A stretch of 44,789 nt of DNA from Vectrevirus PDP21P6 (OZ035822.1), one strand, 5' to 3'. Counted from the stretch's first letter, positions 775-44,631 are shown. A program made the numbers and translations. Notes: generated from the letters alone by a model not told the origin.

Positions 775-2659
775 AGAATCACAGGCAGAGGCATTAAAGC
801 GGTGGGAAAACCTTAAAGAACTACAAGACACTTTTAAATATACAGCGGAAGGTTTGCTTCTCTTTGCAGACACAGTTATTCATAACTTGATTGCAGGCAA
901 CCCTCATCTGATTCGTATGCAGGCTGATATCTTGAAGTTCCTATTCTACGGACACAAATATCGCCTCATCGAAGCGCCTCGTGGTATCGCTAAGACAACA
1001 CTATCAGCAATCTATACGGTATTCCGTATTATTCATGAACCGCATAAGCGTATCATGGTTGTGTCACAAAATGCTAAGCGAGCAGAGGAAATCGCAGGTT
1101 GGGTGGTGAAAATCTTTCGTGGCCTAGACTTCCTTGAGTTTATGCTGCCGGATATCTACGCAGGGGACCGTGCATCCGTTAAAGCATTTGAGATTCATTA
1201 CACCCTACGTGGTAGCGATAAGTCCCCCTCTGTATCCTGTTACTCAATCGAAGCAGGTATGCAGGGTGCTCGTGCTGATATTATTCTAGCGGATGACGTT
1301 GAATCGATGCAGAATGCTCGTACAGCAGCAGGCCGTGCATTGCTTGAGGAGTTGACCAAGGAATTTGAATCTATTAACCAATTTGGTGACATCATCTACC
1401 TTGGGACACCTCAGAACGTAAACTCTATCTACAATAACTTACCTGCTCGTGGTTACTCTGTTCGTATCTGGACTGCACGTTATCCTTCAGTGGAGCAGGA
1501 GCAATGCTATGGTGACTTCCTTGCACCTATGATTGTGCAGGATATGAAGGACAACCCCGCACTTCGCTCTGGTTATGGGTTGGACGGTAACAGTGGTGCA
1601 CCTTGCGCACCTGAAATGTACGATGATGAAGTGCTGATTGAGAAGGAAATCTCTCAGGGTGCGGCTAAGTTCCAGCTTCAGTTCATGCTTAACACTCGCA
1701 TGATGGATGCTGACAGATACCCACTTCGTCTAAACAATCTCATCTTCACTTCATTCGGTACTGAGGAAGTCCCTGTGATGCCTACGTGGAGCAACGACTC
1801 CATCAACATCATTGGAGATGCACCGAAGTATGGCAATAAACCTACAGACTTCATGTATCGACCTGTGGCTCGCCCCTATGAATGGGGTGCTGTTACCCGC
1901 AAGATTATGTATATCGACCCAGCGGGCGGCGGTAAGAATGGAGATGAAACGGGTGTAGCGATTGTCTTCCTGCACGGCACATTCATTTACGTGTATCAGT
2001 GCTTCGGCGTGCCAGGCGGATACCGCGAATCGTCCCTGAATCGCATTGTGCAGGCCGCAAAGCAGGCTGGTGTTAAAGAGGTATTCATTGAAAAGAACTT
2101 TGGTCATGGCGCGTTTGAGGCGGTAATTAAGCCTTACTTTGAACGAGAATGGCCTGTGACTCTGGAGGAGGATTACGCCACCGGACAGAAAGAGTTGCGT
2201 ATCATTGAGACGCTAGAGCCACTCATGGCGGCCCACAGGCTCATCTTTAACGCAGAGATGGTGAAATCGGACTTTGATTCGGTACAGAACTATCCGCTTG
2301 AGCTACGCATGTCCTACAGCCTTTTCAATCAAATGTCGAACATCACGATTGAGAAGAACAGCCTCCGGCACGATGACCGCTTAGACGCTCTGTATGGCGC
2401 TATACGGCAATTAACTTCTCAGATAGACTATGATGAGGTTACACGGATTAATCGCCTCAGAGCGCAGGAGATGCGCGATTACATCCATGCTATGAACACA
2501 CCTCACCTCCGTAGGGCGATGCTCTATGGAGATTATGGCACTGAGCGAAGAGTAACCAACACTTCCGTGGCTATGCAGCAAAGAGTGTACGGTCAGAATT
2601 ACAGGAGTAAATCGGCAAATCGAAATACACTTTCTGCAAGGATTTCAAGGACTTATTAA
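761..2659 (+). CDS. terminase large subunit (DNA maturase B)
   Basis: ATG 761 with AGGAG RBS 748-752; deviant Walker A PRGIAKTT and Walker B IILADDVE typical of T7 gp19-like terminases; 632 aa. Confidence 0.85.
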   Translation: MAKARESQAEALKRWENLKELQDTFKYTAEGLLLFADTVIHNLIAGNPHLIRMQADILKFLFYGHKYRLIEAPRGIAKTTLSAIYTVFRIIHEPHKRIMVVSQNAKRAEEIAGWVVKIFRGLDFLEFMLPDIYAGDRASVKAFEIHYTLRGSDKSPSVSCYSIEAGMQGARADIILADDVESMQNARTAAGRALLEELTKEFESINQFGDIIYLGTPQNVNSIYNNLPARGYSVRIWTARYPSVEQEQCYGDFLAPMIVQDMKDNPALRSGYGLDGNSGAPCAPEMYDDEVLIEKEISQGAAKFQLQFMLNTRMMDADRYPLRLNNLIFTSFGTEEVPVMPTWSNDSINIIGDAPKYGNKPTDFMYRPVARPYEWGAVTRKIMYIDPAGGGKNGDETGVAIVFLHGTFIYVYQCFGVPGGYRESSLNRIVQAAKQAGVKEVFIEKNFGHGAFEAVIKPYFEREWPVTLEEDYATGQKELRIIETLEPLMAAHRLIFNAEMVKSDFDSVQNYPLELRMSYSLFNQMSNITIEKNSLRHDDRLDALYGAIRQLTSQIDYDEVTRINRLRAQEMRDYIHAMNTPHLRRAMLYGDYGTERRVTNTSVAMQQRVYGQNYRSKSANRNTLSARISRTY

Positions 2660-2680
2660 TTACTGGACACTATAGAAGGA
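2658..2680 (+). promoter_or_regulatory. phage RNAP promoter
   Basis: AATTACTGGACACTATAGAAGGA, +1 G at 2675, directly after terL stop. Confidence 0.7.
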
Positions 2681-2751
2681 AGGCCCAGATAATAAGAGAA
2701 ATAACAAGGATAATATAGGTTAACCTAGGTTATATAGGTATGCCTTAGTAT

Positions 2752-2771
2752 GGGTGTACTCCTGTACACCC
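2752..2771 (+). promoter_or_regulatory. leader stem-loop (possible RNase III site or mRNA-stabilising hairpin)
   Basis: perfect inverted repeat GGGTGTAC-tcct-GTACACCC in the 5' UTR downstream of the 2658 promoter. Confidence 0.4.
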
Positions 2772-2813
2772 TATTCCTTACTTCCTTACTATACTTACAT
2801 AATAGGAGAGAGA

Positions 2814-3092
2814 ATGTCTAATAGTTATAGTACACAACCCCTTACCGGTAAGTCTGCTCGTAAGCAGATACAACCTGTGAGTGAAGCCCTGATGCTTCCT
2901 GTAGTTTACGAGGACACTGTTGAGAAGAAAGGTGATGTTATTAATGATGCCACCAAATCAGGTAAGCAGAAAGGAGCCATGGTGTGTCTTGATACACATG
3001 ATACACTGGTTATTGCTATCGCAGTTGATGGCAAAGAAGATTCCAATTGGCTGACCACGTTATTAGCGGTCACAACTATTACCCCAGCTTAA
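2814..3092 (+). CDS. hypothetical protein, tandem paralog A
   Basis: ATG 2814 with AGGAGAG RBS; 92 aa; shares LPVV..KK.D.IN..SGKQKG.MV...L.IAIA...W..T...TP.A pattern with next ORF. Confidence 0.6.
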   Translation: MSNSYSTQPLTGKSARKQIQPVSEALMLPVVYEDTVEKKGDVINDATKSGKQKGAMVCLDTHDTLVIAIAVDGKEDSNWLTTLLAVTTITPA

Positions 3093-3104
3093 GAGGAGAA
3101 TTAC

Positions 3105-3392
3105 ATGTCTAATTATGGAAACGCAGGTACTGTTACTGGTCAAGCTTTTCGAGTAAAAACTGTACAAACCACTGCAACGGCAATCCCTTTGCCTATTGTT
3201 GCTGAAGCAGACCTTAAGAAGAAAGATCACCCTATCAACATTAAACACCTATCTGGCAAACAGAAAGGCTCCATGGTTGCTGTAGAGAAAGCAGACAACT
3301 CCTTGTACATCGCTATTGCACGTGGTAGTGAACCAACTGACCCTTGGGATGCAACCACTATGGAGGAGACACCTGTAACCCCTGTAGCTTAA
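3105..3392 (+). CDS. hypothetical protein, tandem paralog B
   Basis: 95 aa, AGGAGA RBS, clear paralog of 2814-3092. Confidence 0.6.
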   Translation: MSNYGNAGTVTGQAFRVKTVQTTATAIPLPIVAEADLKKKDHPINIKHLSGKQKGSMVAVEKADNSLYIAIARGSEPTDPWDATTMEETPVTPVA

Positions 3393-3413
3393 TTGTAACA
3401 GATGAGGTCGGTG

Positions 3414-3758
3414 ATGCTTAATAAATACTTCAAGCGACGCGAGTTCGCTTGCCGTTGTGGGTGCGGTACATCCACTGTTGATGCTGAGTTATTACAGGTA
3501 ATCACAGATGTGCGTGAGTACTTCGGTGCTCCTGTGGTTATTACCTCTGGTCATCGCTGTGCAAAGCACAATGCTAAGGTAGGTGGAGCTAAGAACTCCA
3601 TGCATCTTACTGGTAAGGCTGCTGACATTAAGGTACAAGGAATTACACCTTACCGCGTATGGTCTTATCTAACAGCACGCTACCCCAATAAATATGGCAT
3701 TGGGTCTTATCCTAACTTCACCCATATTGATGTACGGAATGGGTGTGCACGATGGTAG
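3414..3758 (+). CDS. endolysin, peptidase M15 family (L-alanyl-D-glutamate peptidase-like)
   Basis: ATG 3414 with GAGGT RBS; motifs ITSGHRCAKHNAKVGGAKNSMHLTGKAADI and FTHID typical of zinc M15 peptidoglycan peptidases. Confidence 0.75.
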   Translation: MLNKYFKRREFACRCGCGTSTVDAELLQVITDVREYFGAPVVITSGHRCAKHNAKVGGAKNSMHLTGKAADIKVQGITPYRVWSYLTARYPNKYGIGSYPNFTHIDVRNGCARW

Positions 3759-3866
3759 GTTGTATTGCATGGTGTGAACGCATGGTTGCTAAGGCTTCAG
3801 AGGAAGGTAACTATGAAGATTGGCAGAACTACTCGACTTTATTGGCTCAATGGAAAGGGAGGTGCA

Positions 3867-4016
3867 ATGAAAAAGCTGTTTAAGTCTAAGAAGGTTGTAG
3901 GTGCATTAGTTGCATTGGCAATTGCTCTTGTTTCTGTAGGTCTTGGCGTAGACCTAGGTGAAGGTACGGAAGGTTCCGTCACTGACGTGGTATGCCAAGT
4001 AATCACCTGTGAATAA
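3867..4016 (+). CDS. small membrane protein (lysis-associated candidate)
   Basis: GGGAGG RBS then ATG 3867; 49 aa with one hydrophobic segment VVGALVALAIALVSVGL. Confidence 0.35.
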   Translation: MKKLFKSKKVVGALVALAIALVSVGLGVDLGEGTEGSVTDVVCQVITCE

Positions 4017-4230
4017 GGTACTTGAGGTGGTGGCAGGTCTTATTGGCCTGCTGCTTGCCGCTAAGAAAAAGAAGGAAGAGAAGGAGGCACAAAGTGAGGC
4101 GAATCATGCTAGCGACAATCCTGCTGATTGGTTCGCTGATCACTTCAGGGTGTCAGACGGCGTTACCAGAGAATCCAAAGGTAAAGCCCCTGAAGCCGAC
4201 GCTGACGGCAGTTTACGAGGTGGACGATAA
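4009..4230 (+). CDS. putative i-spanin (Rz-like)
   Basis: 73 aa, GTG start, N-terminal TM segment then charged region; overlaps a downstream out-of-frame lipoprotein ORF; short for an i-spanin. Confidence 0.4.
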   Translation: MNKVLEVVAGLIGLLLAAKKKKEEKEAQSEANHASDNPADWFADHFRVSDGVTRESKGKAPEADADGSLRGGR

Positions 4231-4303
4231 GGTCTGCTTCAGTAAGCCTGACGCTACACAATTAGGTCTGTACATTCTCTCGCTAGAACGCGGGTATAAT
4301 TAA
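4106..4303 (+). CDS. putative o-spanin (Rz1-like lipoprotein)
   Basis: ATG 4106 after AGGAGG; MLATILLIGSLITSGC signal with lipobox-like TSGC then proline-rich short mature region; overlapped architecture with 4009-4230. Confidence 0.5.
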   Translation: MLATILLIGSLITSGCQTALPENPKVKPLKPTLTAVYEVDDKVCFSKPDATQLGLYILSLERGYN

Positions 4304-4332
4304 TACATAGTTTTATGTATCAGTGTCTTACG

Positions 4333-4355
4333 ATTTACTGGACACTATAGAAGAG
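4333..4355 (+). promoter_or_regulatory. phage RNAP promoter
   Basis: ATTTACTGGACACTATAGAAGAG, +1 G at 4350, upstream of tailspike 1. Confidence 0.7.
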
Positions 4356-4434
4356 ATAAGATAGTGCCGTTCTTTTGAGCGGCCTATTACTAGCCAATCT
4401 TCATGGTGAGGGTTGGGAAGTAATAGGAGATAAA

Positions 4435-6342
4435 ATGGCTAAATTAACCAAACCTAATACTGAAGGAATCTTGCATAAGGAAGACTCTTTGTATGAGTAC
4501 CTTGATGCGAGAGAGAGTATAGTTTTAACATCAAAGCCGTTTGGTGCAGTAGGTGATGCTACTACTGATGATACGGAGGTTATAGCTGCTTCACTAAACT
4601 CTCAAAAAGCTGTCACAGTCTCAGACGGTGTATTCTCTAGCTCTGGTATTAATAGTAATTACTGTAACTTAGACGGTAGAGGTAGCGGGGTGCTAAGTCA
4701 CCGTTCCAGTACAGGTAACTACTTAGTATTTAACAATCTACGTGCAGGTCGCTTAAGTAATATTACGGTAGAGAGTAATAAGGCGACTGATGATACTCAG
4801 GGGCAGCAGGTATCTCTTGCTGGTGGCAGTGATGTTACTGTAAGTGACGTTAACTTCTCAAACGTTAAAGGTACTGGTTTCAGTTTAATAGCATACCCTA
4901 ATGGTGCGCAACCTAATGGGCTTATGATTAAAGGCATTCGAGGTAGCTACTCTGGCTATGCTACTAATAAGGCTGCTGGATGCGTACTTGCTGACTCCTC
5001 AGTTAACTCTCTCATAGATAACGTCATTGCTAAGAGCTATCCTCAGTTCGGAGCTGTAGAGCTGAAAGGTACAGCCAGTTATAACATAGTAAGTAATGTT
5101 ATAGGGGCAGATTGCCAGCATGTAACTTACAACGGCACTGAAGGGCCAATAGCTCCTTCTAATAACCTTATCAAGGGGGTGATGGCTAATAACCCTAAGT
5201 ATGCAGCGGTTGTTGCAGGAAAAGGAAGTACGAACTTAATCTCAGACGTGCTCGTAGATTACTCAACTTCTGATGCTAGGCAGGCTCATGGTGTTACCGT
5301 AGAAGGATCTGATAACGTCATAAATAATGTGCTTATGTCAGGATGTGATGGTACTAACTCTTTAGGACAAGGGCAGACTGCTACAATTGCACGCTTTATA
5401 GGTACAGCTAATAACAACTATGCGTCTGTATTTCCTAGCTACAGTGCTACAGGTGTTATTACCTTCGAACCCGGCTCTACCCGTAACTTCGTAGAGGTAA
5501 AGCACCCTGGCAGGAGAAACGACCTTCTCAGTTCTGCTAGTACTATTGACGGTGCAGCTACTATTGACGGCACTAGTAATAGTAACGTAGTGCACGCACC
5601 TGCATTAGGACAGTACATAGGTAGTATGTCAGGTAGGTTCGAATGGCGGATTAAGTCCATGTCACTCCCTTCAGGCGTTCTTACTTCTGCTGATAAGTAC
5701 AGAATGCTTGGAGATGGTGCTGTGTCATTAGCTGTAGGTGGGGGCACTTCTTCTCAAGTTCGCCTATTTACTTCTGATGGTACTTCTCGGACAGTGTCCC
5801 TCACCAACGGTAACGTGCGTCTTTCTACCAGTAGCACAGGCTTTTTGCAGTTAGGCGCTGATGCAATGACCCCAGACAGTACTGGTACATACGCATTAGG
5901 TTCCGCCAGCCGAGCATGGTCTGGCGGTTTTACTCAAGCAGCATTCACTGTTACCTCAGATGCTCGGTGTAAAACAGAACCTCTTACTATCTCAGATGCC
6001 TTACTGGATGCTTGGTCTGAAGTTGACTTTGTGCAGTTTCAGTATTTGGATCGTGTTGAGGAGAAGGGTGCAGACTCAGCTAGATGGCACTTCGGTATCA
6101 TCGCTCAGCGAGCTAAGGAGGCTTTCGAACGTCACGGTATAGATGCACATCGCTATGGCTTCTTGTGCTTCGACAGTTGGGATGATGTATACGAGGAAGA
6201 TGCCGATGGCTCTCGTAAACTGATTACACCAGCAGGTTCCCGCTACGGTATTCGTTACGAGGAAGTGCTGATATTAGAGGCTGCGTTGATGCGGAGGACT
6301 ATTAAGCGTATGCAGGAAGCACTAGCTTCCCTGCCTAAGTAA
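4435..6342 (+). CDS. tailspike 1 (beta-helix depolymerase-like) with C-terminal intramolecular chaperone domain
   Basis: ATG 4435 with AGGAGA RBS; N-terminal GAVGDATTDDT pectate-lyase-like signature; C-terminal SDARCK...HFGIIAQRAKEAF segment resembles peptidase S74 autocleaving chaperone. Confidence 0.8.
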   Translation: MAKLTKPNTEGILHKEDSLYEYLDARESIVLTSKPFGAVGDATTDDTEVIAASLNSQKAVTVSDGVFSSSGINSNYCNLDGRGSGVLSHRSSTGNYLVFNNLRAGRLSNITVESNKATDDTQGQQVSLAGGSDVTVSDVNFSNVKGTGFSLIAYPNGAQPNGLMIKGIRGSYSGYATNKAAGCVLADSSVNSLIDNVIAKSYPQFGAVELKGTASYNIVSNVIGADCQHVTYNGTEGPIAPSNNLIKGVMANNPKYAAVVAGKGSTNLISDVLVDYSTSDARQAHGVTVEGSDNVINNVLMSGCDGTNSLGQGQTATIARFIGTANNNYASVFPSYSATGVITFEPGSTRNFVEVKHPGRRNDLLSSASTIDGAATIDGTSNSNVVHAPALGQYIGSMSGRFEWRIKSMSLPSGVLTSADKYRMLGDGAVSLAVGGGTSSQVRLFTSDGTSRTVSLTNGNVRLSTSSTGFLQLGADAMTPDSTGTYALGSASRAWSGGFTQAAFTVTSDARCKTEPLTISDALLDAWSEVDFVQFQYLDRVEEKGADSARWHFGIIAQRAKEAFERHGIDAHRYGFLCFDSWDDVYEEDADGSRKLITPAGSRYGIRYEEVLILEAALMRRTIKRMQEALASLPK

Positions 6343-6349
6343 GCAACAG

Positions 6350-6372
6350 GCAGTGCGTAAGCACTGCTTTTC
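6350..6372 (+). terminator. intrinsic terminator-like hairpin
   Basis: GCAGTGC-gtaa-GCACTGC followed by TTTTCACGCAACTTTTCTT. Confidence 0.55.
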
Positions 6373-6427
6373 ACGCAACTTTTCTTAAAGGTTATCATGG
6401 TGGTAGCCTTTCAGAAAAGGAGGTTAC

Positions 6428-8224
6428 ATGCTTCAAAGATTAAGCACTGCCTTGGTGCGGTATAAAAGTAAAATGTCAGGTGCAATAGGTCGTATATTGC
6501 AAGAAAGACTAGAAGATACGTTAAATGCAAAAGACTTTGGTGCAAAATGTAATGGAGTGGATGATGATACAATCCCTCTCAACAATGCAGCAACAGCAGC
6601 ACGCCTTAAAGGAGTCAAACTCGTAATAACAGGGTCTTGCCTAACAACTGACACAGTTAACTTTAGAGAGGTACTGCTAGAGGCATCAAGTGCTACATTT
6701 ATTATTAAACACGAGGGTGTTGGTGTTATCTTGGGTGGTAATGCAAGTGTGCACAATAACCCCAAGCAAGAGTTTGGTATGACAGAAAGACTTGTTGGGT
6801 CTGCATCTCTAGACACCCCTGATGTACGTATAATGGGTGCCAAGTGCCAACACATTAGCATAGAGAAGTCTGATTACCTTCAGCTATATGCAGATTCAGA
6901 TGAATCAGTATATGAAAAGGACTACTCTATCGCGTATTCCACTTTTACCTTAAAGTATGTTAAAACAATCAACATACGCGGGATTAATCGTGGTTGGATT
7001 AATGAGAACCAGTTCTTCTTAAATAGAACACATTTTGTGACAATACAAGATGGCAATTACTCTCATAACCACAATAAATTCTTTGGTGGCACTATGGAAG
7101 AGAAAGGTGCTATAGATATACAGAGAGGTCATAATAATCACTTCTTTGGGCTTCGATTCGAAAGAGATGGCTCTAAGCCAGATAGAACACTAGACATCAA
7201 GTTTGGTTCTTATACATGGAATAATTCAATTGAAGCATCGTGGCTTAGCTCTGCTGCATATAGCAACGAACCATATAACCCAAATAATCTTGTCACTGTT
7301 ACAGATTTAGGTAGAGGTAATGCTGTACGCCATATACAAGAAGATTTAACAGATGAGATCCCTTTGCTTTCACTAAGTGGAAAGGCAGACTACATCTCTA
7401 GTACCAACCTAGGTACTGTAAGCCAACCTGTTGTTATAACTAACTTCCCTAATATATATAATATTAGACACCTAGTATCAAGCAAGTTTTCTGTTGTAAG
7501 AAATTTCTACCCTATATGGGAGTCTGGTAATTTAGAGGTAAGGAATGGAGACTTATTCACATTCTGCTCTGATGTACCTATCTTCCGTATGCGTCTATTT
7601 ATATTAGATGCGCAAGGTAATGTAATCACTGAGCAATTAGATGATGATGTATCATTCCCTGGTAGTTCTTGGAATGCACAATTAAGTATGTATACAAATA
7701 CTACCAATATTGATGTTGCTAAAATACGTGTCACTAATAGTTCTCGTATTAAATACATTCGTCTTGTCTTGATGTCTGGTGGTTCATCTCAAGATAGAGT
7801 CTTTGAATATGCAAGAGTGACTGCAAGATACTATAAGTATTCAAGCTCAACACCTCGTAAGAATATGGATGTTGCCTTAACCTCTTGCTCTGCTATTATG
7901 CCTTATAAGGGCGATGCAGAGATGCAATATATTGGTTACGGTCTGCCTGTTGTTAAGATGGAAGATACGACTAAGAAGGTTAATATAACACGTAATAGGT
8001 ATTCTGTTATTAATGTGTCTGGTTCTTCTATTAAGGTAAGGGTTTCAGGTAGTCTTATATCCGCAGACTCTAACGACTTACATCTTGTATATACAGAGGG
8101 TTCCGCTAATAAAATTATACCTATTCAGTCTTTATCGGATGATACTATTACTTTAACTTCTACTGCACCTACTACTATAGTAGCTAATAGCATGGTAGAT
8201 GTAGTTTGTACAAAGCAGGTGTGA
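6428..8224 (+). CDS. tailspike 2 (beta-helix depolymerase-like)
   Basis: ATG 6428 with AGGAGG RBS; N-terminal DFGAKCNGVDDDT pectate-lyase-like signature; 598 aa; no adaptor domain. Confidence 0.75.
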   Translation: MLQRLSTALVRYKSKMSGAIGRILQERLEDTLNAKDFGAKCNGVDDDTIPLNNAATAARLKGVKLVITGSCLTTDTVNFREVLLEASSATFIIKHEGVGVILGGNASVHNNPKQEFGMTERLVGSASLDTPDVRIMGAKCQHISIEKSDYLQLYADSDESVYEKDYSIAYSTFTLKYVKTINIRGINRGWINENQFFLNRTHFVTIQDGNYSHNHNKFFGGTMEEKGAIDIQRGHNNHFFGLRFERDGSKPDRTLDIKFGSYTWNNSIEASWLSSAAYSNEPYNPNNLVTVTDLGRGNAVRHIQEDLTDEIPLLSLSGKADYISSTNLGTVSQPVVITNFPNIYNIRHLVSSKFSVVRNFYPIWESGNLEVRNGDLFTFCSDVPIFRMRLFILDAQGNVITEQLDDDVSFPGSSWNAQLSMYTNTTNIDVAKIRVTNSSRIKYIRLVLMSGGSSQDRVFEYARVTARYYKYSSSTPRKNMDVALTSCSAIMPYKGDAEMQYIGYGLPVVKMEDTTKKVNITRNRYSVINVSGSSIKVRVSGSLISADSNDLHLVYTEGSANKIIPIQSLSDDTITLTSTAPTTIVANSMVDVVCTKQV

Positions 8225-8230
8225 GGTAAT

Positions 8231-8380
8231 ATGCCTTTAATTAAATCAGTTAAGCAAAGTGCTGTACGCCAGAACACAGAAGAACTTATTCAATCAGGAC
8301 GTGACCCTAAGCAAGCCTATGCGATTGCCAAGGATGTACAACGTCGTGCTATGAAGAAACCTTCTGCATCTTCTGCGTAA
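8231..8380 (+). CDS. hypothetical small protein
   Basis: 49-aa ORF, GAGGT RBS 4 nt before ATG 8231, starts 6 nt after tailspike 2 stop. Confidence 0.3.
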   Translation: MPLIKSVKQSAVRQNTEELIQSGRDPKQAYAIAKDVQRRAMKKPSASSA

Positions 8381-8450
8381 GCAGGTTAATATCTTAGTGT
8401 ACACAAGGGCAGACCTAGGTTTGCTCTTAGTGTATTTCAAAGGAGGTAAC

Positions 8451-8570
8451 ATGGGAGTGTTTAGCTTTATGTCAGGTACAACCAGTGATATGCCAAAGGA
8501 AGCATTCAGGAACTTCCTGATTATCGCAGGTGGAATCTTAGTGTTTTCACTAGTGCTGCTCACAAAGTAA
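8451..8570 (+). CDS. hypothetical small membrane protein
   Basis: 39-aa ORF with strong AGGAGGT RBS; C-terminal hydrophobic segment FLIIAGGILVFSLVLL. Confidence 0.3.
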   Translation: MGVFSFMSGTTSDMPKEAFRNFLIIAGGILVFSLVLLTK

Positions 8571-8984
8571 CCAAAGTCAAAATTTTGATATAGGCGTGTG
8601 TCAGCTCTCTCGCCCTCGCCCTCGCCGGGTTGTCCCCATAGGGTGGCCTGAGGGAATCCGTCGGAGACGGGTAGGGCTGATGTACTCCTTGTACTAGCTT
8701 AGTAGTACACAAGGGCAGGCCGTACTAGTTAGCTGGTACAGCCTAGTCTTTGCTCATGTACTAGCAAGGTGGAACGCCAGAGAGCGCCTAGGACGGCCTA
8801 GGGATGGCTTAGTGTTTGACAAGGTGAATGCCTTAGTGAAGCCTCTTAGTGCATTCCTGAGGCTATTCAGGGCCATTCCTGAGCGTTTGACAGGGTGGGC
8901 GTGGGTGGGCTATCTGTTCGTTTCGCTCCACTACGTTACGCTACACTCACCGCGCTCGTGTATCCTTGGTATAAACCTGATGGA

Positions 8985-9095
8985 TAGCTTAGGTTAACCT
9001 TAGTGGACTACCTTAATTAAAGCCTTAGTGCTTCACTTAGTATCAGCTTAGTAGTGTACCTTAGTTGGTCTTAGTGAATAGCCTTAGTGATTGCA
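8985..9095 (+). repeat. periodic array of CTTAGT(G) heptamer motifs
   Basis: about nine CTTAGT/CTTAGTG copies spaced 10-13 bp apart, with more copies scattered from 8393 to 10300; non-coding. Confidence 0.6.
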
Positions 9096-9316
9096 TAGCT
9101 AAAGCTATAAGATGCCAATAGGTCGCGGTCAGTAGACCGCTAAGAAAGAGAATAGTAATAAGATGCAGTAGGAGGGACACCAGAACACGGGACAACCTGG
9201 CCTCTCCTGTCTCTGTATCTATTACTTTCCTTAGTCTCACACGTTAGACAACCTAGGTTTCTCTTAGTAATTGTGACCTGTATCACATAAATAATCTATC
9301 TTAGTGAAACTTAGTG

Positions 9317-9345
9317 TTGACACAGGCAATCAACAGCTATACATT
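9317..9345 (+). promoter_or_regulatory. host sigma70-type early promoter
   Basis: TTGACA, 17-bp spacer, TACATT. Confidence 0.55.
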
Positions 9346-9493
9346 AGCAATCACTGAGGTGGACCTAGCAAGCTGCCTCAGGTTATAAGCAGGAGAATTG
9401 ATGCGTAAGCCATAGCTGGTGGATGTAGTCGCATGAAGGCTTGAGTAAGGGGCCGTTTAATACCTTCTTCCTCTGGAGACAACGCTTATAACA

Positions 9494-9508
9494 CCGCTCT
9501 TTAACAAT
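9494..9508 (+). promoter_or_regulatory. boxA-like antitermination element
   Basis: CCGCTCTTTAACAAT contains the rrn boxA core GCTCTTTAACAA; lies in the early leader. Confidence 0.5.
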
Positions 9509-9566
9509 CTGCTTAGTGTAACCTGTGTATGCCGTGGTTAATTACTTATTGAATGAGGAATTAACT

Positions 9567-9665
9567 ATGAATTACGAAAAACTGTATAAAGCCTATTACT
9601 ATAACGCATTAGTGAGAGGAGAAGAGCCTTTGTCTTTCGCTGAGTTTGTGGAGGCTTTATCATGA
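9567..9665 (+). CDS. hypothetical early protein
   Basis: 32-aa ORF, GAGGAA RBS, stop overlaps next start (ATGA). Confidence 0.3.
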   Translation: MNYEKLYKAYYYNALVRGEEPLSFAEFVEALS

Positions 9666-9847
9666 CACTGAATAGCCGTGAACTATCCGTTCTCTTCACC
9701 TTGTTATGCTATATGATATATAGAAATGAGTCACTCAGTGATGATGAGTTGTCTTTGTATCACCGCTTTCTTAACGATGGTTGGGTGGATACATTAAACC
9801 AGAAACGTGACTTGATGAAGGAGTTAATTAATGATTCAGTTAACTGA
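9662..9847 (+). CDS. hypothetical early protein
   Basis: 61-aa ORF, translationally coupled to the upstream ORF. Confidence 0.45.
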   Translation: MTLNSRELSVLFTLLCYMIYRNESLSDDELSLYHRFLNDGWVDTLNQKRDLMKELINDSVN

Positions 9848-43400: not shown

Positions 43401-43669
43401 ACTTCTTAGGCGGCCTAGGTGTTCTCCCTTCTGAGTTAGTACAATCCCGTTATGAGGCTGGCTTTCAGACTAAGGGTTTGATAGACCAAATACCACTAGT
43501 AGGTGTTGGTCAAGATGCATATCGTTTAGCAGATTCTATAACTAAATATGCAGAGGGTGATACAGAAGGTGTAGATGTGGCACGTAGGGCTTTACGCTTA
43601 GTGCCTCTAACTAATGTAATAGGAATCCAGAACGCACTGCGTTATGGCTTAGATGAACTGGAGGATTGA
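40472..43669 (+). CDS. internal virion protein (gp16-like)
   Basis: ATG 40472 with GGAGGG RBS; 1065 aa with Gly/Ala-rich segments; T7 gene 16 position. Confidence 0.75.
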   Translation: MEQDIKTNWAGYVQSTPEPFSIEAAPVSAPTIRQRNELQEQVLEAKADADILGAVGAAFQNEWLAFGGKRWYDRATADFTPQPDFEIQPEQREALRFKYGTDMMQTITEGVRSEDELNFRIQNADEDLERNKRIAQAGWVGSVATIGAAVLDPVGWVASIPTGGAAKVGLVGRAVRGAIAAGVSNAAIESVLVQGDMTRDLDDIMVALGSGMAMGGVIGAVARGRAAKLSEQGDDRAANVVRSADAGDRYVRAVADDSIGAMRVKGEEVLTEGAFDISSKGEDLLKTLQREGNAIDMTPRRWAGTLSALGTVVHSSQDASVRGLGARLFESPQGLGMQKASASLMQNTNLNRLKSADMNRFNDGFDLWLKENNINPVAGHTNSHYVQQYNEKVWEAVRIGMDESTPKSIRMAAEGQQAMYREALALRKRSGEAGFENIKADDKYMPDIFDTMKARRQFDRIGKDIDKEDIIELFSRAYQNGARKIPKEAADEIARAQVNRVADATLTGNLSFEKAMSGQTKAEYEAIMRKAGFSDEEIEKMVEALDNKETRDNISNRAKMSLGLDVTQEYNGIRMRDFMNTNVEELTDNYMKEAAGGAALARQGFSTYQAALNAIDLVERNARNAANGSKASLALDEEIRQMREGLRLIMGKSIDADPQAISTKMMRRGRDITGVLRLGQMGFAQLGELANFMGEFGIAATTMALGKQFRFTSKALRNGDGFFRDKNLAEVERMVGYIGEDNWLTTKGARPDEFGDVTTVRGMMAHFDQSMNSIRRAQTNLSLFRMAQGSLERMTNRQIALSFIDHLEGKKIIPQKKLEELGLTQEFMTNLQKHYDANSKGSGLLGFDTMPYAMGETLANAIRRKSGLIIQRNFIGDEGVWMNKALGKTFAQLKSFSLVSGEKQFGRGIRHDKIGLAKKTAYGFALGSIVYAAKAYVNSIGREDQDEYLEEKLSPKGLAFGAMGMMSTTAVFSLGGDFLGGLGVLPSELVQSRYEAGFQTKGLIDQIPLVGVGQDAYRLADSITKYAEGDTEGVDVARRALRLVPLTNVIGIQNALRYGLDELED

Positions 43670-44631
43670 TGAGTTATACTTTCACAGAACATATAGCCAA
43701 CGGTACGCAAGTAACCTATCCCTTTAGATTTGCTGGCAGGGATAAAGGCTATCTTCGTGCCTCAGATGTGATAGTGGAATCTCTTCAAGGTAACACTTGG
43801 ATTGAGGTTACATCTGGCTGGCAATTAACTGGTACGCATCAAATCACTTTTGATGTAGCACCTGTTGCAGGTTTGAAGTTCCGTATTCGAAGGGAAGTAC
43901 AAAAGGAATATCCATACGCTGAGTTTGACCGTGGTGTTACCTTGGATATGAAGTCTTTAAATGGCTCTTTCATTCATATACTGGAGATTACACAGGAGTT
44001 ACTTGACGGGTTTTATCCAGAAGGATACTTCATTAAACAGAATGTAAGCTGGGGCGGCAATAAGATTACTGATTTGGCTGATGGCACAAATCCGGGAGAT
44101 GCAGTAAATAAAGGGCAGCTTGATGCCATTGACAAGAAGCATACAGATTGGAACACCAAACAGGATATTGAGATTGCTGGCCTTAAAGCAGGTATGACTT
44201 CTGGTATTGCGCACAGAACTATCCCTTGGTACACGATCGCCCAAGGAGGTGAGGTTTCCGTAAAACCTCCTTATGAATTTCAAGATGCACTAGTTTTCCT
44301 TAATGGGGTCTTGCAACACCAAATCGTAGGCGCATACTCTATAAGCAGCAACACTATCACTTTCGCAGAGCCACTTGTGGCTGGCACAGAGGTGTATGTG
44401 CTGATTGGCAGTCGTGTGGCTACATCTGAACCTAATATTCAGTTAGAGTTGAACTTTGACTTAGTAGAAGGCCAACAAGTAGTACAGATTGGCTCTGCAT
44501 TTAAGTACATTGAGGTCTACCTTGATGGATTATTACAACCTAAACTTGCTTATCAGGTAGACGGTGACATTGTTACTTTCTCAGAAAGAGTACCAGAATG
44601 CCGGATGACTGCTAAGATTATCACAGCATAA
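43669..44631 (+). CDS. tail fiber adaptor protein (T7 gp17 N-terminal domain-like)
   Basis: 320 aa; N-terminal region matches the pattern of the T7 gp17 tail-attachment domain; no receptor-binding domain. Confidence 0.7.
   Translation: MSYTFTEHIANGTQVTYPFRFAGRDKGYLRASDVIVESLQGNTWIEVTSGWQLTGTHQITFDVAPVAGLKFRIRREVQKEYPYAEFDRGVTLDMKSLNGSFIHILEITQELLDGFYPEGYFIKQNVSWGGNKITDLADGTNPGDAVNKGQLDAIDKKHTDWNTKQDIEIAGLKAGMTSGIAHRTIPWYTIAQGGEVSVKPPYEFQDALVFLNGVLQHQIVGAYSISSNTITFAEPLVAGTEVYVLIGSRVATSEPNIQLELNFDLVEGQQVVQIGSAFKYIEVYLDGLLQPKLAYQVDGDIVTFSERVPECRMTAKIITA

Follow-up and report, generated by a model that had tools for sequence, protein, structure and literature searches.

The two tailspike genes of Vectrevirus PDP21P6 (PDP21_P6; OZ035822.1), together with the gene for the adaptor on which the two spikes would be mounted, very probably form the module with which a podovirus of the K1-5 type recognizes its receptors and which consists of the adaptor, a K5 lyase and a second β-helix depolymerase whose substrate is neither K5 nor K1. 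The whole stretch of DNA analyzed here (hereafter the window) is 44,789 nucleotides (nt) long and is a circularly permuted genome of Vectrevirus, a K1-5-like genus of the Autographiviridae. Vectrevirus genomes align over 91-94% of a 24.8-kb query taken from the window, with identities of 92-94%, and the 4-kb tailspike region shows 98.5% nt identity over its whole length to that of Vectrevirus PDP21P3 (PDP21_P3; OZ035804/OZ035769). An earlier note on this DNA, made from the sequence alone, had described two consecutive large genes as a dual tailspike module and had compared them with the K1-5/SP6 arrangement. The genes lie essentially where they had been placed, tailspike 1 at 4435-6342 and tailspike 2 at 6428-8224, both on the plus strand. 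The comparison is also borne out, since the adaptor and tailspike 1 are 98% identical to their K1-5 counterparts, the spacer between the spike genes is near-identical, and the N-terminal peptide of the spike in the second slot has been kept.

The separate 320-amino-acid (aa) adaptor with a tail-attachment domain was found as predicted. Its gene runs on the plus strand from an ATG at 43669 to 44631 and encodes the orthologue of K1-5 gp37 (98% aa identity). Residues 4-154 of the protein match the Pfam family Phage_T7_tail (PF03906), the T7 gp17-like domain from the N-terminus of the T7 tail fiber, and a search of PDB matched the protein to 7y22_e, a 'tail adaptor protein', with an E value of 6e-81. 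The two spike genes are adjacent, with a conserved spacer between them. Each spike begins with an N-terminal peptide specific to its slot, and neither contains a Phage_T7_tail or a head-binding domain. The role of the adaptor and the docking of the N-terminal peptides of the spikes have been described (PMC5380687, PMC6966330). By analogy with K1-5, the T7-gp17-like N-terminal domain would join the adaptor to the tail, and two unlike trimeric tailspikes would each dock at a site of its own on the adaptor by way of a short N-terminal peptide.

Tailspike 1 is, on sequence orthology, the K5 capsule (heparosan) lyase KflA, corresponding to K1-5 gp46, and has 635 aa. The mechanically called open reading frame (ORF), 4375-6342, opens at a TTG; the true start is the ATG at 4435, which is preceded by the ribosome-binding site AGGAGATAAA and corresponds in the alignment to the first residue of K1-5 gp46. 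The protein is 98% identical to the K1-5 gp46 'K5 lyase' over 635 aa, and phrog_14895 matches it from end to end. The PDB entries 2x3h ('K5 lyase') and 9vvr match residues 1-508 and 34-634, respectively, both with an E value of 0. At the nt level, the gene is 96.5% identical to the 'K5 lyase' record of phage K5 (Y10025). The β-helix fold of tailspike 1 is thus known from a near-identical protein, for which a crystal structure exists. The segment GAVELKGT, which contains E209 and K211, is the same in tailspike 1 and K1-5 gp46. With the shift of +3 caused by an insertion, these residues correspond to Glu206 and Lys208 (K5A numbering), reportedly the catalytic residues of the K5A lyase. From the coliphage K5A lyase KflA (2X3H; Thompson et al. 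2010) there is no substantive difference, only a few substitutions and the insertion. Tailspike 1 would bind the K5 capsule (heparosan) and cleave it by β-elimination.

The N-terminal part of tailspike 1, about 36 residues (4435-4542, plus strand), precedes the motif at which the β-helix starts and is presumed to bind the adaptor. Such a role of the N-terminal peptide of the spikes is attributed to Leiman et al. 2007 in the summary given in PMC5380687. The insertion mentioned above, ESI, lies at residues 27-29 (nt 4510-4518) of the N-terminal linker, in or adjoining the presumed adaptor-binding peptide, when tailspike 1 is compared with K1-5 gp46 and a metagenomic copy. At residues 16-17, ED replaces the GQ of the same two proteins. 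The rest of the peptide is conserved with K1-5 gp46.

The earlier note had further assigned a chaperone-like domain to tailspike 1 only, from about 5955, and both the restriction and the position hold. The Peptidase_S74 domain, an intramolecular chaperone and self-cleaving domain, occupies residues 508-635 of tailspike 1 (5956-6339, plus strand). The Pfam family PF13884 matches residues 508-568 with an E value of 1.5e-14 and 54.4 bits (Pfam cut-off 22), the match beginning at nt 5956, and the domain also matches the PDB structures 3gud (E 1e-22) and 3gw6 (E 9e-20). The Pfam alignment starts at S508, and the domain opens with S508-D-A-R-C-K513 (Ser-x4-Lys), a serine and a lysine which we take, from work on endosialidases, to be the catalytic dyad. 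The computed masses are 67.1 kDa for the full protein and 52.4 kDa for residues 1-507, and the masses published for K1-5 ORF46 are 67 and 52 kDa (PMC5380687). Because of this agreement, we infer that tailspike 1 of the present phage is also processed. The S74 domain would help tailspike 1 to fold and would then cut itself off before Ser508, reducing the spike from 67 to 52 kDa.

A Pfam search of tailspike 2 gave no S74 domain. This is unlike K1-5, in which both spikes carry one. Since the domain is missing, tailspike 2 most likely resembles the P22-type tailspikes, which trimerize and mature without being proteolyzed. The suggestion that the two spikes mature differently is thereby upheld, in that tailspike 2 has no S74 domain although K1-5 gp47, the spike in the same slot, has one.

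Tailspike 2 is a 598-aa tailspike for which structure prediction gave a β-helix fold. Its N-terminal part, about 45 residues (6428-6562, plus strand), is a peptide of the K1-5 gp47 type and is presumed to bind the adaptor. Residues 1-73 are 41% identical to the K1-5 endosialidase gp47, and pairwise alignment gave no significant similarity to gp47 beyond residue ~73. The N-terminus also matches that of the Klebsiella phage Kp7 fiber gp51 (7y5s, E 0.0014); in the PDB sequence search with tailspike 2, this N-terminal peptide was the only part matched. We considered whether tailspike 2 could be an endosialidase and rejected this, since it lacks PF12217, PF12219 and PF12195, all of which are present in K1-5 gp47, and since its alignment with gp47 is limited to residues 1-73. 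The family PF12218 (End_N_terminal) was matched in 5 of 32 relatives of tailspike 2.

These features define an exchangeable cassette. On its left side is the 85-nt spacer between the tailspike genes (6343-6427, plus strand), near-identical in K1-5 and PDP21_P3. The spacer contains a strong ribosome-binding site, AAGGAGG, and a hairpin, GCAGTGC-GTAA-GCACTGC (6350-6367), after which comes a TTTT run; in the scan, this hairpin was listed for the minus strand alone, and the T-run on the plus strand was read directly from the sequence. On the right side, the nt homology to K1-5 returns immediately 3' of the stop codon of tailspike 2, at the ATG of a small conserved ORF similar to K1-5 gp48 (8231-8380, plus strand). 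Since the spacer and the N-terminal peptide are conserved and the homology resumes after the stop codon, the variable segment extends over ~6560-8230, with conserved flanks on both sides. Tailspike 2 fills the cassette slot that the K1 endosialidase holds in K1-5, with the presumed docking peptide kept and an unrelated body attached to it.

PDP21_P6 shares with K1-5 (gp37, gp46, gp47; Scholl et al. 2001 and Leiman et al. 2007, as cited in PMC5380687) the genus, the gene order, the spacer, the type of the N-terminal peptide in slot 2 and the small ORF after the cassette. K1-5 gp47, however, is a β-propeller with an S74 domain, whereas tailspike 2 is a β-helix protein without it. In the phages T205_P4 and T205_P5 (OZ035727, OZ035792), the K5 lyase of slot 1 is combined with a different protein in slot 2; there the nt match ends after the spacer and the N-terminal peptide. 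A tail with one adaptor and two spikes has been solved for the Klebsiella phage Kp7 (adaptor 7Y22 chain e, fibers gp51 in 7Y5S and gp52 in 7XYC). Both Kp7 fibers are β-helix structural neighbors of tailspike 2, but their bodies are only 11-12% identical to it, and the host genus is different.

The earlier note had also pointed to pectate-lyase-like signatures near the N-termini of the two spikes. Both motifs are present: GAVGDATTDDT at residues 37-47 of tailspike 1 (nt 4543) and DFGAKCNGVDDDT from residue 36 of tailspike 2 (nt 6533). Such a motif is only a hint of a β-helix. K1-5 gp47, a β-propeller endosialidase, also contains a GAKGDG...D motif and gives a weak match to PF12708, and the motif alone is therefore no proof of the fold. 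At an E value of 0.01 or below, neither tailspike matched PF12708 (pectate-lyase-like), and 9 of the 32 relatives of tailspike 2 did. The missing match of tailspike 2 is an issue of sensitivity and does not contradict a β-helix fold. The fold itself stands on other grounds, namely the near-identical crystal structure for tailspike 1 and structure prediction for tailspike 2. The AlphaFold2 model of tailspike 2, made with a 32-sequence alignment, has a predicted local distance difference test (pLDDT) score of 87.8 and shows a right-handed β-helix at approximately residues 40-300, followed up to the C-terminus by β-rich domains, including C-terminal β-sandwich domains.

The relatives of tailspike 2 indicate that its body is conserved. 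Across the 32 relatives, 18 columns are invariant, including E193, E224, E245, R243, H213 and Y211, and many more are near-invariant. The ratio of nonsynonymous to synonymous substitution rates (dN/dS), computed against a relative of 92% identity, is 0.11 over the whole protein and 0.046 within the β-helix core, a sign of purifying selection. The confident fold, the invariant residues and the low dN/dS argue that tailspike 2 is functional and probably enzymatic. Most likely, it would depolymerize a second surface polysaccharide, neither K5 nor K1, and so open access to an alternative type of host.

We obtained the host range of PDP21_P6 from the supplements of Gaborieau et al. (bioRxiv 10.1101/2023.11.22.567924), covering the interaction matrix for PDP21_P3, PDP21_P5 and PDP21_P6 on all strains and most of the table of strain traits. 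The panel comprises 403 strains, the K types of which come from a custom in-silico scheme. PDP21_P6 was isolated on Escherichia coli PDP21, a strain of phylogroup D and sequence type (ST) 69 with O77/O17/O44/O106:H18 and a K5 capsule (bioRxiv 10.1101/2023.11.22.567924). It infects 17 strains, 15 of which are typed as K5; in all, the panel contains about 22 strains of this type. The strain NRG807C gave a weak score of 1 for PDP21_P6. The only clear host outside K5 is NILS01 (ST69, O25:H18, typed K4), with a score of 2 for each of PDP21_P3, PDP21_P5 and PDP21_P6. On NILS01, the K5 Kayfunavirus PDP21_P1 has a score of 0, as have T205_P4 and T205_P5, which combine the K5 lyase with another spike in slot 2. 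The strain LM08 agrees with NILS01 in ST, in O and H type and in lipopolysaccharide (LPS) core and differs from it in capsule type; it is not infected. The dual receptor specificity put forward in the earlier note is thus plausible: a K5 capsule accounts for 15 of the 17 hosts, but a second class of receptor is hinted at by one strain only.

The behavior of T205_P4 and T205_P5 bears on the function of slot 2. The isolation host of both was a K7 strain, and their hosts include K5 strains as well as the K7 strains IAI72, IAI54 and IAI33 (bioRxiv 10.1101/2023.11.22.567924). Their second spike is therefore probably specific for K7, and slot 2 thus gives a second capsule specificity in this group of phages. 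In the same data, the K5 strains of ST73 (ECOR-51, AN17 and T147) resist PDP21_P3, PDP21_P5 and PDP21_P6 and are sensitive to T205_P4 and T205_P5. The K5 lyase is nevertheless present in each of the five phages, and a factor other than capsule recognition limits infection of these strains.

Several observations weigh against the proposed reading of tailspike 2 as a second depolymerase docked on the adaptor. Searches of Pfam and NCBIfam with tailspike 2 gave no family match. The N-terminal docking peptide is the part of the model with the lowest confidence (pLDDT 30-51). In addition, comparison of the predicted fold does not separate a lyase from a hydrolase, because both classes are found among the structural neighbors at similar scores: RbmB, the K5 lyase, chondroitinase B and PL6 enzymes on the side of the lyases, and GH28, GH55, GH87, GH110 and hydrolytic tailspikes on the other. 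Finally, dual specificity is barely visible in the panel of 403 strains, where tailspike 2 adds no more than a single clear host, NILS01.

The relatives of tailspike 2 were then considered as a guide to its substrate. An exhaustive search with the protein gave 561 clusters at an E value of 0.001 or below, of which only about a dozen aligned along the entire protein. Near-identical copies were found only in PDP21_P3 (99% aa identity) and in one metagenomic contig from SRR14654593 (92%). In both, the K5 lyase gene precedes the tailspike 2 gene, the lyase of the contig being 95% identical to tailspike 1. The other relatives are 35-57% identical over nearly the whole protein and have different N-termini; those in E. 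coli prophages show 46-57% identity, and the prophage relatives cover 87-99% of the protein. The N-termini joined to such bodies include the P22 head-binding domain (PF09008), the CBA120-type TSP_N domain and tail-collar domains, and presumably also an epsilon15-like one. The body of tailspike 2 is thus a further instance of the modular exchange that is usual among receptor-binding bodies. A relative is present in 17 of 5,426 E. coli genomes, and the serotype is named in one record only (O166:H15).

The closest characterized relative of the body is Dep-ORF8 of Pasteurella phage PHB02, which is 29% identical at residues 129-522 (66% of the protein). Recombinant Dep-ORF8 clears the capsule of 31 of 31 type A strains of Pasteurella multocida and is inactive on capsule-negative mutants (PMC6090149). 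Dep-ORF8, the tail fiber gp17 of 968 aa, has its own T7-type N-terminal domain and differs from tailspike 2 in host and substrate. An identity of 29% is too low for the substrate to be transferred from one protein to the other.

Two further observations on the relatives are worth recording. The chromosome of E. coli strain 20AR0300 (NZ_CP195498.1) contains four separate matches to the prophage type of relative. On another metagenomic contig (SRR25644130), slot 1 of a Vectrevirus-like phage is occupied by a relative with 57% identity (8001-9803), and the second spike after it is a different one. The N-terminus of this relative looks chimeric, with MAKLT, which resembles slot 1, followed by LVKVKSK...AIERLL, which resembles slot 2.

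The nature of the second polysaccharide can be read in more than one way. It is possible, though doubtful, that tailspike 2 is an endoglycosidase specific for an O-antigen, like SP6 gp46 and the P22-type spikes, and that the O type in question is rare or absent in the panel. Leaving aside the near-identical copies in phages, the closest relatives (35-52% identity over 87-99% of the protein, with 46-52% for the nearest) lie in prophages of E. coli and Escherichia marmotae, and P22 head-binding, CBA120-type or presumably epsilon15-like N-termini, as found on the prophage relatives, belong to phage types that classically use the O-antigen. Moreover, SP6, of the same subfamily, has O-antigen spikes (PMC6966330). 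The panel does not favor the O types at hand, since the O77/O17/O44/O106 strains with K96 (DIJ07, LM40, BDX03 and LM02), the O17 strains ECOR-44, ECOR-47 and H442, and the non-K5 O25 strains ECOR-15, ECOR-52, ECOR-54 and LM08 are all uninfected. The N-terminal module, moreover, does not fix the class of substrate, because P22-like prophages can also carry capsule enzymes, such as the endosialidase of CUS-3. As specific candidates, the O77/O17/O44/O106 antigen of the isolation host was rejected as a sufficient receptor, with four other ST69 strains of this O type (K96 capsule) and several O17 or O73 strains uninfected, and O25 was found to be unsupported, with non-K5 O25 strains including LM08 uninfected.

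It is rather unlikely that tailspike 2 is instead the depolymerase for the group 2 capsule of NILS01, typed as K4 (fructosylated chondroitin), which would give the phage two glycosaminoglycan-like targets, heparosan for spike 1 and a chondroitin-like polymer for spike 2. What speaks for this is the pattern around NILS01 described above, in which PDP21_P3, PDP21_P5 and PDP21_P6 infect the strain, PDP21_P1, T205_P4 and T205_P5 do not, and LM08, with the same serotype and another capsule, is spared. The type A capsule of P. multocida, on which the closest characterized relative of the body is active, is hyaluronan, and K4 shares with it the same type of backbone, glucuronic acid linked β1,3 to an N-acetylhexosamine. 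Pasteurella phage F108 is, in addition, the top viral structural match of tailspike 2. However, 10 of the 11 K4-typed strains, including B1147, B49, ECOR-14, IAI27 and IAI30, are uninfected, as against the 15 infected strains of about 22 with K5. The relation to Dep-ORF8 is distant, the in-silico K typing is a custom one, and infection of a single host could reflect something besides adsorption. Our literature search found no phage depolymerase specific for K4. That tailspike 2 is the first such enzyme for an E. coli K4-type (chondroitin-like) capsule, and a distant kin of the Pasteurella type A enzyme, is accordingly an unlikely outcome.

The two spikes might also act one after the other on a single K5 host, spike 1 stripping the capsule and spike 2 processing the O-antigen or core beneath it, with no gain in host range. 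The K5 lyase and tailspike 2 occur together in the window, in PDP21_P3 and in the SRR14654593 contig, three sources that are independent of one another, and almost all hosts are K5; both facts would fit this. The K5 hosts, however, span O2, O10, O17, O18, O25, O75 and O-negative strains, with three LPS core types or a waaL-negative status, so that no single specific second substrate can be required. Since the slot provides an alternative specificity in K1-5 and in T205_P4 and T205_P5, and NILS01 is infected without K5, sequential action appears improbable. It is very improbable that tailspike 2 is an inactive structural remnant like the truncated gp46 of K1E. The lack of a family-level annotation and the almost invisible gain in host range would agree with a remnant, but the protein is of full length with a confident fold, the invariant columns include the charged residues E193, E224, E245 and R243, and the dN/dS values are low both overall and in the β-helix core. 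A second depolymerase acting on a polysaccharide other than K5 and K1 is therefore the reading that we prefer.

The region around the spike genes was also examined. An SP6/K1-5-type phage RNA polymerase promoter lies upstream of tailspike 1 at 4333-4355 on the plus strand, where ATTTACTGGACACTATAGAAGAG is an exact match to the consensus, from which its function would follow. The consensus has 8 matches in the window with at most 3 mismatches, all on the plus strand, and 0 are expected from shuffled sequences. Just 5' of this promoter, two ORFs (4009-4230 and 4022-4303) overlap in different frames, and one of them has a lipoprotein-like N-terminus. The region 4009-4303 is annotated in relatives as an Rz-like spanin or o-spanin.

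Downstream of the cassette, the heptamer CTTAGTG is concentrated within 8393-9518: 13 of its 20 copies in the genome lie there on the plus strand, within 1.1 kb that contain no ORF longer than 89 aa. Genome-wide, about 7.6 copies are expected, and no shuffled sequence reached 20. The region 8393-9518 is presumably the genome end or a terminal repeat of the permuted assembly.

PDP21_P3, which has the same pairing of K5 lyase and tailspike 2, has a genome 799 bp longer, and outside the shared block the two phages are 84-96% identical. In the block itself, approximately 2250-8250 of the window (the lysis and tailspike genes), the identity is 97-100% except in one 250-nt bin (3500-3749, 91%). In the flanks of the block the identity is 84-92%, and over much of the structural region it is about 92%. 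This mosaic suggests either that the block was exchanged between the co-isolated phages or that it was co-selected on the same host.

The arrangement of one adaptor with two exchangeable spikes, and the K5 lyase as one of them, is textbook knowledge, to which the present example adds nothing conceptual. Its modest value lies in tailspike 2, an uncharacterized and well-conserved β-helix module that moves between Vectreviruses and prophages. If a K4-like substrate should prove true, the enzyme would be of use in capsule typing, in anti-virulence work on extra-intestinal E. coli and in the cutting of chondroitin-type polymers, and it would help to explain the host range recorded in a published phage-host data set.

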